In this document: piece by piece, positions 6,945-63,983 of the stretch
How positions within the stretch are numbered: the first letter of the stretch is position 1
How the letters are laid out: every line of letters starts with the position of its first letter
Source of the DNA: an uncultured Muribaculaceae bacterium
GTDB taxonomy: Bacteria > Bacteroidota > Bacteroidia > Bacteroidales > Muribaculaceae
Assembly: GCA_905233915.1 (NCBI GenBank)
Contig: CAJOFM010000006.1
Coordinates: 16,873-80,872 of the forward strand
Direction: 5' to 3'
Length of the DNA stretch: 64,000 bases
The notes under the pieces: generated by a model
Databases searched by the model: none
What the model was told of the DNA's origin: nothing
The model's input: the letters and a program-made list of their open reading frames with translations, nothing else
Position numbers and translations under genes: made by a program

Positions 6945-7207
6945 GGCATCCGCATTGTAGGGCCTCGCCTTGGCGTGGCCGCTTGCCTCACGCTAAGACG
7001 CTAAAGTTTTCAGTTGGCATCCGCATCCATTTTTTAAAGACAAGAAATACAAGAAAAACTAAGGCTGCGCGCATTCCTTGTTATTAAAAACAACTTAAAC
7101 AACTCAACCAACAGCATCCGCACCCCCGTCGTCACAGGAATGCGGATGCCAAAATTAGTTTAATTAGCGAAATAAGCATTGAAAAAGAAGTTTTTTTGTA
7201 CTTCTTG
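6945..7207. repeat. Intergenic composite repeat/palindrome cluster
   Basis: (G)GCATCCGCA at 6945, 7016 and 7114 with an inverted copy at 7141; CAAGAAATACAAG at 7041 with an inverted near-copy at 7196. The same motifs recur near 42.5 kb and 62.6-62.7 kb. Confidence 0.7.
6957..6982 (+). repeat. GTAG-type REP-like repeat, copy 1 of 3
   Basis: GTAGGGCCTCGCCTTGGCGTGGCCGC is identical to 62871-62896 (+) and 63958-63983 (-); internal hairpin GGCC-T-CGCC-TT-GGCG-T-GGCC. Confidence 0.85.
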
Positions 7208-38838: not shown

Positions 38839-38954
38839 CTTCTCTGTTATTATTAAGTTATTCAAAATCAATTAAATTGCATTAATAGCAGAATCCGTCT
38901 AACTGAGCGGAAATCTATTCAAAAAACTTCACTCCCAACCTCGTAGAGGCCAAG

Positions 38955-39717
38955 CGGGTTGAAGACCCGATTTCACAGAAAAACACCATGCAAGCGGGCA
39001 GTAGGCCCGCGCAGCTTGGTGCCAGGGCGCCAAGTAACAAGTGCGTCGAAGACGAACTTCAATCAGGTCAGTCTATAATCATTCCAATCCAGTCCAGAGG
39101 ACTCTATCATGGTCCTATACTCATCCTCAAATGTTTTCGCCTTGTGGTGTTCACGTTGATTGATGATATAGTTAATGATGACATCCTTTTCACGCTGACT
39201 GCAAGAGAATGCGCCGTACTCTTTACCCCATCCGCTGAATTGAGGGAAAAGAGCCTGTTGCCTGGCCCACTTGCTGCTGCCCTGTTTGACATCACGCACA
39301 AGATCACTCAACGCCATTGTGGGGGAAAGCTCAATAAGCATGTGAATGTGATTGCCTATGCCATTAATGCGATAGAGACGGCAACCACGGCTCTTGACAA
39401 TCGACCAAATATATCGATAAAGATGTTCACTAGTTTCATCGGGTATGGTCATCTGACGTCGATAGGTGTTGATGACAACATGAAATATGGAACTGACTGC
39501 ACTCATTCTTCAACTTGGTGTGAGGGTTGGAACTGCAAAGTTAAGATTTTTGTTTTTCCCATGCAAGTGCAGCAGGTTTGAAGTTCGTCTTCGACGCACA
39601 TTCACATCATCATCATTCACACCAAGCGTCGAACCCCGCTGGGGTTCTTGCATGGTGTTTGCACACAACGGCGGCACTTCGAGCCGCCAACCTCTTCGAG
39701 GTCACCCTTGCGGGTGA
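38955..39717 (-). mobile_element. Y1 HUH transposase locus with mirror-symmetric hairpin flanks (REPtron-like)
   Basis: Perfect 22-bp IR 39041-39062 / 39578-39599; 14-bp IR 38981-38994 / 39647-39660; several short hairpins on each side; no tnpB. Confidence 0.7.
39063..39506 (-). CDS. tnpA: IS200/IS605-type (Y1) transposase, TnpA/TnpA-REP-like
   Basis: FHVVINT, HUH motif NHIHML, KQGSSKW, W..EYGAFS, catalytic YIINQ.EHH; own TAACTTTG promoter at 39536-39543 (-). Confidence 0.9.
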   Translation of the reverse strand: MSAVSSIFHVVINTYRRQMTIPDETSEHLYRYIWSIVKSRGCRLYRINGIGNHIHMLIELSPTMALSDLVRDVKQGSSKWARQQALFPQFSGWGKEYGAFSCSQREKDVIINYIINQREHHKAKTFEDEYRTMIESSGLDWNDYRLT

Positions 39718-39870
39718 GACGCGACTTGAAATGGAACACCAATTATTCCACATGACCAAAAAGTTTTCATCCATCAGAGTACATCATCGGGCAAAATGGG
39801 CAATTTTGGGCTAAAAAAACGGGGGATTTTGAAAAAAAACGGCTTTTTTTGAAAAAAAATCGCGATTTTG

Positions 39871-39901
39871 TTTGGTGGTTTAAAAAATAGCAGTACCTTT
39901 G
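39871..39901 (+). promoter_or_regulatory. Canonical Bacteroidetes promoter of tRNA-Val
   Basis: TTTG-N19-TACCTTTG. Confidence 0.8.
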
Positions 39902-39921: not shown

Positions 39922-39999
39922 GGGCAGTTAGCGCAGTTGGTTCAGAGCATCTGCCTTACAAGCAGAGGGTCGGGGGTTCGAATCCCTCACTGCCCACCA
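39922..39999 (+). tRNA. trnV: tRNA-Val (anticodon TAC), CCA encoded
   Basis: GGGCAGT/ACTGCCC acceptor stem, anticodon arm TCTGC-CTTACAA-GCAGA, T-loop GGTTCGAATCC. Confidence 0.96.
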
Positions 40000-62634: not shown

Positions 62635-62930
62635 GGCATCCGCACCCCCTTTTTCAAACAACATGAACAACAATGAACAACCATAACAACACTATTATTT
62701 AGCATCCGCACCCATTTTTCAAACAACAGAACAACAAATGCTATTTAGGGCCCGGTAAAAGCTCCGCCAGGAGCGGCTAGAGCACAGGCAGATGTGTAAC
62801 GAGGCGAAGCCGAGTGCAACCCCTGCAACAGCGAACACCCGCCCAAGCCCCATCGGGGCGGCAGAAATGGGTAGGGCCTCGCCTTGGCGTGGCCGCATGT
62901 CGTCGGGCGAGGCCGAGGGCCTCGAATTGC
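62635..62930. repeat. Intergenic REP/BIME-like cluster including GTAG-REP copy 2 (62871-62896)
   Basis: GCATCCGCACCC x2, several short GC hairpins, and an exact 26-nt REP copy. Confidence 0.75.
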
Positions 62931-63957: not shown

Positions 63958-63983
63958 GCGGCCACGCCAAGGCGAGGCCCTAC
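63958..63983 (-). repeat. GTAG-type REP-like repeat, copy 3
   Basis: Exact reverse complement of 6957-6982. Confidence 0.85.

Follow-up and report, generated by a model that had tools for sequence, protein, structure and literature searches.

In the REPtrons and REPIN-RAYT systems, such as those of the Escherichia coli TnpA-REP and the Pseudomonas RAYTs, a single-copy Y1 transposase gene is bracketed by inverted hairpin repeats, and inverted doublets of the repeat, without the gene, are scattered over intergenic regions (Nunvar 2010, PMC2817692; Bertels and Rainey 2011, PMC3116915). These repeats are hairpins of 20–40 nt with a GT[AG]G foot, they number in the hundreds, each enzyme lineage (class 2, with the motif Y---NP) has its own cognate repeat variant, and the gene is under purifying selection through long vertical inheritance. 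In the TIRtrons, the Y1 gene lies in long inverted repeats that are not GTAG REPs, and the repeat families are moderately abundant and organized as dimers (Di Nocera, De Gregorio, and Rocco 2013, PMC3733652); the corresponding TIRYT proteins are mainly of class 2.1, and their repeats share GGGGWSAS (PMC6006769). IS200/IS605 elements and their miniature derivatives (PATEs) have end hairpins that share one strand, and no inverted repeats. Another group of these enzymes, TnpAY1 subclass 1.2, published in Bacteroidetes or Cyanobacteria and of low copy number, was tabulated as having no REPs and is generally without IS200-type terminal structures (Quentin et al. 2018, BMC Genomics 19:475, PMC6006769). 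Here we describe a locus in a 64,000-nt stretch of DNA (the window) from an uncultured Muribaculaceae bacterium (GenBank assembly GCA_905233915.1, contig CAJOFM010000006.1, positions 16,873–80,872), in which a Y1 gene, tnpA, lies between two inverted arms, each composed of four small hairpins, and whose arms recur without the gene, in doublets or singly, elsewhere in the genome. We consider it fairly probable that a Y1 (HUH) enzyme of subclass 1.2 underlies a REPtron/REPIN-like system here and that the locus is the protein-coding master copy of that system.

The gene is on the minus strand at positions 39063–39506 of the window, which belongs to contig C6 of a 2.8-Mb genome bin of 24 contigs (genome G000), and it codes for a 147-aa HUH/Y1 single-strand-DNA transposase. 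The Pfam model Y1_Tnp (PF01797) matched the protein with 76.7 bits against a cut-off of 23 (E = 2e-21), and both the HuH motif (H53-I54-H55, read from the translation) and the catalytic Tyr (Y113) were found within this domain, as in other members of the HUH/Y1 superfamily. The NCBIfam model IS200 scored 59.5 bits against a cut-off of 55, and REP_Tyr_transpos (NF047646) scored 23.7 bits against a cut-off of 80. The sequence relatives found in the PDB were IS200-type TnpAs (2f4f, 2fyx, 2xm3, 2ec2, and 2a6m, with 2f4f and 2xm3 the best), and the same search, carried to E = 1, returned no chain named as a REP-associated enzyme. With the low REP_Tyr_transpos score and the stretch Y113-I-I-N-Q117-R-E-H120-H121, which follows the pattern Y---Q--HH of subclass 1.2 instead of the Y---NP of class 2, a TnpA-REP/RAYT identity for this protein was rejected.

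Comparison with the published table of motifs, and not a tree, places TnpA provisionally in or next to subclass 1.2. The likenesses are the motif YIINQREHH (YIKNQKEHH in the table), the length (147 aa against a median of 148), the short C-terminal tail, the low copy number, and the Bacteroidota host (PMC6006769). At two other motifs, the table gives DH[IV]H and WQ, and TnpA departs from it with NHIH and WG; relatives at 44–49% identity from Chitinophagaceae, Chryseobacterium, Planctomycetia, and Porphyromonadaceae have DHIH, WQ, and YIKNQKEHH exactly. By tblastn, the genome contains one copy of tnpA, and congeners have one to three; the two other Y1 genes of the genome are distant and of class 2. 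Between the syntenic orthologs of congeners and the copy in the window, the ratio of nonsynonymous to synonymous substitution (dN/dS) was 0.035 at a dS of ~1.6, indicating strong purifying selection. What sets the gene apart from the subclass as published is its surroundings, since here and in distant relatives it is flanked by inverted hairpin arms, of which there are dispersed copies as well.

The left arm, downstream of tnpA, occupies positions 38937–39062 and has its four hairpins, with GNA loops, on the plus strand. From the outside inward, these are H1 (38939–38949, CCTC-GTA-GAGG), H2 (38955–38969, CGGGTT-GAA-GACCCG, with a T.G pair next to the loop), an extended H3 (38984–39021), and H4 (39041–39057, GTG-CGTC-GAA-GACG-AAC). 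In the extended H3, a base helix (CACCA/TGGTG) is followed by an internal loop (TGCAA/GCAGCT), and the two enclose the variable stem GCGGGC-AGTAG-GCCCGC. The right arm, upstream of tnpA, occupies 39578–39704 and carries its GNA loops on the minus strand, with H4' at 39583–39599, the extended H3' at 39620–39657, H2' at 39670–39688, and H1' at 39690–39702. An additional outer hairpin (39703–39716, minus strand, CACCC-GCAA-GGGTG) is present on the right side only and is confined to this copy, as the other aligned arms are without it. The left arm was recovered with an nhmmer E of 1e-29 and 121 bits of the covariance model, and the right one with 1e-28 and 108 bits. Folded as DNA on the strand of the GNA loops, the arms had z-scores of -4.8 (left) and -5.5 (right) relative to shuffles, and the base helix was predicted in the right arm.

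Much of this anatomy had been read from the sequence in a first-pass annotation, and the repeats that it described are all present. The 22-nt perfect inverted repeat GTGCGTCGAAGACGAACTTCAA, which contains H4, is found at 39041–39062 (plus strand) and 39578–39599 (minus strand), with no chance match of this kind in 100 shuffles; its left copy ends at 39062 and adjoins the stop codon (TCA on the plus strand, 39063–39065), as had been noticed. The 14-nt inverted repeat AAACACCATGCAAG lies at 38981–38994 and 39647–39660, CTTGGT is at 39016–39021 and ACCAAG at 39622–39627, and the hairpins are indeed mirrored in position with stems that differ between the sides (GCGGGC and GAACCCC; CGGGT and GGCGGC). 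The two hairpins that the annotation gave each flank also exist, but there are four per arm and a fifth on the right, the outermost ones (38939–38949 and 39690–39702, with the right fifth at 39703–39716) having been missed by it. Its constant linkers, AAACACCATGCAAG and GCTTGGTG, proved to be conserved; they are not plain linkers, however, because they form the base helix and the invariant internal loop around H3.

Between the upstream arm and the ATG is a leader (39507–39577, minus strand) that holds the promoter-like box TAACTTTG (plus-strand CAAAGTTA, 39536–39543). The box fits what we take to be the Bacteroidota -7 box, with the consensus TAnnTTTG, and is a putative promoter of tnpA.

The structure of the arms was examined in an alignment of 58 arms from this genome and its congeners, representing ~30 species. 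From outside to inside, the common order is H1; H2; (C/G)ACCA-TGCAAG; H3; CGCNGCT-TGGT(G/C); a variable stretch of ~15 nt; and GTGC-H4-GAACTT. Over the four hairpins, 98.1% of the stem cells in the 58 arms can pair, against 81% when partners were shuffled and ~40% when the partner column was slid. Changes on both sides, that is, compensatory changes, were found in 18 of the 24 pairs, a count that none of 500 shuffles reached. By helix, pairing was found in 95% of the cells of helix 1 (H1), where all five pairs change on both sides, in 97.7% of those of helix 2 (H2), where five of six pairs covary, in 98.8% of those of the H3 stem (six of seven pairs), and in 100% of those of helix 5 (H4), in which the pair at columns 118–127 is G-C in 30 arms and C-G in 28. 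H3 sits on a base helix that itself covaries, since the pairing of ACCA with TGGT is extended outward by a pair that is never open, being C-G in 41 arms and G-C in 16; the invariant internal loop TGCAA/GCNGCT separates it from H3. The proposal of the first-pass annotation that structure rather than sequence is conserved therefore holds in part: the variable stems covary strongly, but much of the arm sequence is conserved too, and several arm positions are invariant across a span over which the dS of tnpA is ~1.6.

The loops follow an equally simple rule. Of the 232 hairpins, 211 have a GNA loop (GAA in 157, GTA in 26, GGA in 16, and GCA in 12), and in 217 the loop is closed by a C-G pair. Only GNA triloops give the extraordinarily stable DNA mini-hairpin, in which the stability conferred by N decreases in the order A > G > C > T (PMC13037366). 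The arms resemble the mini-hairpin d(GCGNAGC) of that work in their loops, 91% of which are GNA and 94% closed by C-G, and in that the commonest loop here, GAA, is the most stable in vitro. They differ from it in the second stem pair, which is mostly T-A and not G-C, and in their longer stems of 4–7 bp. In the literature consulted, no link was found between the GNA mini-hairpin motif and HUH transposases.

Several features bear on the molecule in which these hairpins form. On the strand of the GNA loops, G.T pairs outnumber A.C pairs (34 vs 8), and this excess points to one folding strand. Because the left and right stems differ and each arm is self-complementary, pairing has been kept within the arm and not between arms; for the same reason, pairing between the arms, as one long hairpin or cruciform, was rejected as the selected structure. 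Together with the loop, which is a DNA mini-hairpin motif, these observations argue that selection acts on local hairpins formed by one strand of the DNA in its single-stranded state, and not on an RNA or a long cruciform.

The opposite reading is that the arms work as RNA, either as structured 5' or 3' untranslated regions that control tnpA or as terminators or stabilizers elsewhere, and we judge it improbable. REPs elsewhere in bacteria have RNA-level effects (PMC3733652), and both strands of the arms fold better than shuffles. Read-through from a host promoter could also bring the upstream arm into a transcript, and at an insertion site in congeners (locus A, described below) a copy of the neighboring gene's promoter is found just upstream of the arm. 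In the window, however, the TAACTTTG box is on the gene side of the upstream arm, which would thus be left out of the transcript, and the downstream arm, if included in the tnpA mRNA, would show complementary UNC loops. Moreover, the C-GNA-G triloop is a motif of DNA mini-hairpins and not a GNRA or UNCG tetraloop of RNA, and a scan with Rfam had the neighboring tRNA as its sole match, with no family, Acido-Lenti-1 included, for the arms. The gene-less doublets, finally, are palindromic and occur in every orientation relative to the neighboring genes.

These doublets came to light when the repeats of the locus were sought in the rest of the genome. A genome-wide count of the 22-mer and the 14-mer, which the first-pass annotation had proposed, found six further loci, and a hidden Markov model (HMM) made from the aligned flanks detected 14 arms of ~125 nt at eight intergenic loci, namely, the tnpA locus, five gene-less doublets, and two single arms. 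The arms of a doublet face each other across 20–28 nt, with one compact doublet sharing its inner hairpin. The doublets are 81–85% identical to one another and ~70–85% identical to the arms of the window. At the 16 loci of congeners that are syntenic with one another, H4 is CGTC/GACG in the upstream arm and CCTC/GAGG in the downstream arm; since this left/right difference is kept in the doublets of our genome, they look like the full unit minus the gene.

The association of the gene with the arms was observed in every one of the 18 genome records that contain a TnpA of 81–86% identity. In all of them, the order is an upstream arm with GNA on the coding strand, ~70 nt, the gene, and an inverted arm at the stop codon or a few bases from it. 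A second TnpA lineage (54–62% identity) coexists with the first in many genomes, and in the two cases checked (G024 and G023), weaker matches to the arm model were found right beside the gene. In distant relatives, a C-GNA-G hairpin occurs upstream on the coding strand at 12 of 15 loci and downstream on the other strand at nine of 15, usually within inverted repeats between the two flanks; for comparison, this genome as a whole has 0.016 such hairpins per kb per strand when stems of 5 bp or more are counted. The same strand arrangement of inverted C-GNA-G hairpins was seen beside distant subclass 1.2 genes of Chitinophagaceae, Planctomycetia, and Porphyromonadaceae, so that the link between gene and arms extends across species and phyla. 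A subclass that was published without partner repeats thus does have them, as inverted hairpin arms, in every close relative examined and in distant ones.

A covariance model of the arm, applied at E <= 0.001, recognized arms in 23 members of a set of 25 congeneric genomes; outside the genus, 16 other genera of the order yielded a single weak hit. In a larger sample of 121 genomes of the genus, 77 contained arms at E <= 1e-15, from two to at least 29 per genome. In this sample, 32 genomes have a close tnpA (66% identity or more), in one to three copies that are nearly all intact. When the two gene-flanking arms were left out of the count, these 32 genomes had a median of nine extra arms and the other 89 a median of one (Mann-Whitney p = 3e-8, with no phylogenetic correction).

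The unit of gene and arms has been both inherited and moved. In 16 of the 18 close relatives, it is at one syntenic locus, between a gene for a glycosidase-like lipoprotein and a gene for a membrane protein, which is not the locus of the window. In the window, the unit lies between a DJ-1/PfpI gene and a tRNA gene, and this site, for which the first-pass annotation had suggested that empty versions be sought, has no arms and no tnpA in at least eight congeners that keep the order DJ-1, tRNA, and outer membrane protein (OMP). At the strain level, the insertion is fixed: no empty site was found, as all eight public contigs with an identical DJ-1 protein carry tnpA, and the one compared was 100% identical. 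The empty DJ-1/tRNA sites of congeners are too diverged for base-by-base alignment, so the exact ends of the element were not obtained from them, and no direct repeat flanks the copy in the window. Arm-tnpA-arm units are also duplicated within three genomes, G015 (95% identical), G019 (89%), and G120 (99.8%); in the first two, the homology begins 6–8 nt outside H1. Compared with the single copy, vertical inheritance, and housekeeping-like selection of REPtrons, the gene gives a mixed picture: it is syntenic in 16 species with a dN/dS of 0.035, and yet it is at a different locus in our genome, at a site that is empty in the relatives examined, and is duplicated in three species. Among 25 doublets sampled from nine genomes, no common flanking sequence was found.

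Presence and absence of the unit were also compared at locus A, where the genes on both sides were readable in 19 species. Four of these have the full unit, two have a solo upstream arm with the promoter region, and 13 have neither arm nor tnpA, with the flanking genes ~190–260 bp apart in 12 of the latter. The flanks of one filled site (L082) and one empty site (L084) are 92–96% identical. In the set L081, L082, L092, L083, and L085, the neighbor's promoter (TTTTCATCTTTGTGCAACTTTTTTGA) is duplicated, as direct repeats on the two sides of the unit; the length of the duplication varies among species from 13 to 47 bp, and in L092 all 47 bp are identical. The empty site has one copy. A box similar to that of the window, TACCTTTG, is present in the remnants L083 and L085. 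The sequence shared at the right junction suggests one old insertion that later decayed and was lost in places, and we therefore do not generalize from this locus.

An ordinary IS200/IS605 insertion sequence with standard left and right ends would account for part of these data. Like those elements, the locus has a HUH/Y1 enzyme of the same class, hairpins that are likely recognition elements, and gene-less derivatives; the NCBIfam call is IS200/IS605 (59.5 bits against 55), the best solved relatives are IS200-type TnpAs, and, to judge from the congeners examined, the unit has been inserted. This explanation is nevertheless largely refuted, and we assign it a very low probability. The ends here are inverted repeats with their hairpins on opposite strands, there is no tnpB, and the gene is outnumbered by gene-less doublets, with one copy in our genome and one to three diverged copies in others. 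Synteny in 16 species at a dS of 1.6, which is near saturation, is not the behavior of an insertion sequence. The multi-copy canonical IS200, with inverted repeats occurring nowhere else, that the first-pass annotation had set against its own proposal was therefore not what we found. As for the insertion of IS200/IS605 elements 3' of a fixed tetra- or pentanucleotide, with no duplication of the target, there is no close empty site for the copy in the window, and at locus A the promoter is duplicated over 13–47 bp.

Some of the doublets have a further layer. In G111, G155, and G158, doublets are bounded by 19-bp terminal inverted repeats with the sequence (T/C)ATTRYTGTCCGGGGAAAG, and in G111 and G155 the ends of the doublets are readable because the copies are 93–99% identical. 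The unit with this shell is 367–372 bp long; the terminal repeat abuts H1 on one side, and on the other side a segment of ~85 nt parts it from H1'. Perfect AT-rich direct repeats of 9 bp flank L125 (ACTTTTTTT), L129 (ATATTATTC), L145 (AATTTTAAC), and L147 (ATAAAGATT), and near-perfect 9-bp duplications flank L107 and L135. An empty site for the L145 doublet was sought among 121 congeners, in which conservation was limited to the neighboring coding sequence. The terminal-repeat motif was counted 39 times in G111, 36 times in G158, and 13 times in G155, against one to four times for a control pattern, and there are shorter derivatives of 127–218 bp that are internal deletions and keep the terminal repeats. 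In our genome, the doublet of contig C5 (72.5–72.9 kb) has the same terminal repeats, and a clean target duplication was not readable there.

Terminal inverted repeats with a target duplication of fixed length are the signature of DDE transposons. Hence, the doublets might be ordinary miniature inverted-repeat transposable elements (MITEs) of a DDE transposase yet to be identified, with the arms carried along as cargo; in that case, TnpA would have been domesticated as a HUH protein for a role other than transposition, and the arms beside its gene would serve, for example, for self-regulation or for hairpin processing at replication forks. We regard this alternative as rather unlikely, though it is the one to be taken most seriously. 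The terminal repeats, the perfect duplications of four loci (L125, L129, L145, and L147), the counts of the motif above those of the control, and the internally deleted derivatives that retain their ends all speak for it, as do the host-gene-like features of tnpA (one syntenic locus in 16 species and purifying selection) and G111, which has recent copies and is without a close tnpA. On the other hand, none of 20 terminal-repeat loci in G111 and G158 contains a transposase open reading frame, and a search of our genome for such pairs of terminal repeats or for an autonomous DDE partner gave none; multi-copy IS elements may be lacking from draft genome bins. Structural selection is strong on the doublet arms too, and not just on those beside tnpA, the difference between left and right arms in the tnpA unit persists in the doublets, and more arms are found where tnpA is present. 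In addition, the arm-tnpA-arm units that were duplicated in three species are without the terminal repeats.

Several of these facts count against a REPtron/REPIN-like system driven by TnpA. The shell of terminal repeats and 9-bp duplications around the doublets in G111, G155, and G158 is, to our knowledge, not a signature of HUH/Y1 enzymes, nor do we know of REPINs with terminal inverted repeats and target-site duplications, and the units that bear tnpA, that of the window included, do not have these terminal repeats. The doublets of our genome, being only 81–85% identical, show no sign of recent activity. Co-occurrence is imperfect, as some genome bins with 10–28 arms have no close tnpA; G111, G126, and G197, with 21–28 arms, are clear exceptions, and in G111 copies of the arms are 98–99% identical. 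The number of arms is also far below that of typical REP families. Because of the shell in some genomes, the doublets may spread by another enzyme or mechanism: either a second, unseen transposase took the arm doublets as cargo, or the system inserts by a mode not described so far.

A property of the assemblies should be considered with respect to the genomes with arms and no close tnpA. The gene lies between repeats and may for this reason be missing from bins. Arms and terminal repeats were often observed at 350 bp or less from contig ends (in G005, G111, G155, and G158), and such repeats probably break short-read assemblies, which may drop the ~0.6-kb piece with tnpA.

Considering the evidence as a whole, the REPtron-like character that the first-pass annotation had proposed stands in part. 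As in REPIN-RAYT systems, a single-copy Y1 gene is bracketed by inverted hairpin modules, seven other intergenic loci have such modules and no gene, every lineage of the enzyme comes with a repeat variant of its own, and the gene appears to have been inherited vertically for long under purifying selection. What did not stand is the identity of the protein, which is not a TnpA-REP/RAYT (class 1, Y---Q, instead of class 2, Y---NP). In contrast to a classical REPtron, the unit was inserted, as the comparison with congeners indicates, and it was moved or duplicated in some species (duplicated in three). Furthermore, the repeat is a four-hairpin module of 125 nt and not a single hairpin of 20–40 nt with a GT[AG]G foot, the arms number in the tens instead of the hundreds, and some gene-less doublets carry the shell of terminal inverted repeats and 9-bp target-site duplications. 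The TIRtrons are similar in having a Y1 gene in long inverted repeats other than GTAG REPs and moderately abundant families organized as dimers, and differ in that the enzyme here is of class 1.2 and the arms are arrays of GNA mini-hairpins with covarying stems.

Under the reading that we favor, the TAACTTTG box in the leader would serve tnpA as a promoter of its own, and TnpA would bind the mini-hairpins in single-stranded DNA, for example, at replication forks. The best candidates for binding would be H3 in its extended form, which includes the invariant internal loop, and the gene-proximal H4, which hardly varies; cutting and rejoining would take place in the invariant sequence beside the hairpins. 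The gene-less doublets would be internal-deletion derivatives scattered to intergenic sites. The inversion of the arms means that on either strand just one of them is in its GNA form, as in REP/BIME and REPIN structures and unlike IS200/IS605. That TnpA binds, cleaves, and moves the arms is what we infer from the sequences.

In a search of full texts, no paper was found on partner repeats for subclass 1.2 or on elements of this type in Bacteroidales. The sole systematic classification of Y1 proteins gave the subclass neither REPs nor IS ends, which left its function open. In this genus, the enzyme now has a conserved DNA partner whose structural grammar is clear (each arm has four C-GNA-G mini-hairpins, one of them on a base helix) and which offers concrete substrates for binding and cleavage, and the idea of REPIN and RAYT, in which a long-lived population of repeats is tied to one enzyme gene, would extend to another enzyme class in gut and rumen Bacteroidota. 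New here are the GNA mini-hairpin rule, the covarying base helix, the asymmetry of left and right arms, the census of the genus, and the shell of terminal repeats and 9-bp duplications. The first of these provides a direct argument, at the level of sequence, for single-stranded DNA as the working form. In the genome bins examined, the presence of the repeats at the ends of many contigs means probable assembly breaks and the probable loss of tnpA from bins.

The shell also raises a choice, either that a second transposase captured the modules or that a HUH enzyme makes target duplications. More speculatively, the subclass 1.2 enzymes might be cognate to multi-mini-hairpin inverted arms across phyla and also be the mover of the doublets with terminal repeats, a combination that we hold to be distinctly unlikely. 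If it were true, the substrates of a HUH nuclease would be inverted, hairpinned ends that lie on opposite strands, which somewhat recalls the parvoviral Rep and its hairpinned terminal repeats, and insertion by a HUH/Y1 enzyme would leave a target duplication of 9 bp, a way of transposing that has not been described for these enzymes.

Additional structures were observed around the arms of some lineages. In L110–L112 (G005), L116–L117 (G019), L040 (G158), and L153–L154 (G120), the inverted symmetry runs 50–150 nt past the four-hairpin arms. The outer modules are lineage specific (for example, GGGACACCTGCAAAAAC... in G005 and G120), and the elements are thus layered palindromes with a common core. 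Beside L040 there is also a 130-nt repeat that was considered as a mobile element and rejected, since it codes for a repeated C-terminal protein domain, probably a sorting domain of the type IX secretion system (T9SS). In L153 (positions 1031–1116, G120:C6), one of the arms of a tnpA unit is split by an insertion of 86 bp, which falls between its base helix and H3, as judged against the 99.8%-identical second copy in G120.

The genome also contains a classical REP family, GTAGGGCCTCGCCTTGGCGTGGCCGC, with a GTAG foot and an imperfect palindrome, of which 47 copies were found within three mismatches. Three of them are in the window (62871–62896 and 6957–6982 on the plus strand and 63958–63983 on the minus strand), and many are arranged in inverted pairs 110–120 bp apart. 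Their own RAYT is on another contig (C7:51353–51988 of G000); it has the motifs NHVH, WQ, and YINNN, contains an in-frame REP insertion, and fits subclass 2.4. Since the family has this enzyme, it was rejected as a substrate of the TnpA in the window, and the two repeat systems are separate. A third Y1_Tnp gene (C6:4140–4979, ~12 kb upstream of the start of the window, 39.8 bits) codes for a protein with NHVH, YIHQNP, and YRWSS motifs and a long C-terminal tail, and is class-2-like. Finally, just upstream of the tRNA gene (39922–39996) are three tandem 20-nt A/T-rich units (AAAAAAACGGGGGATTTTGA and variants, 39813–39871). As this block is kept upstream of the tRNA in congeners free of the element, it is probably the promoter region of the tRNA.

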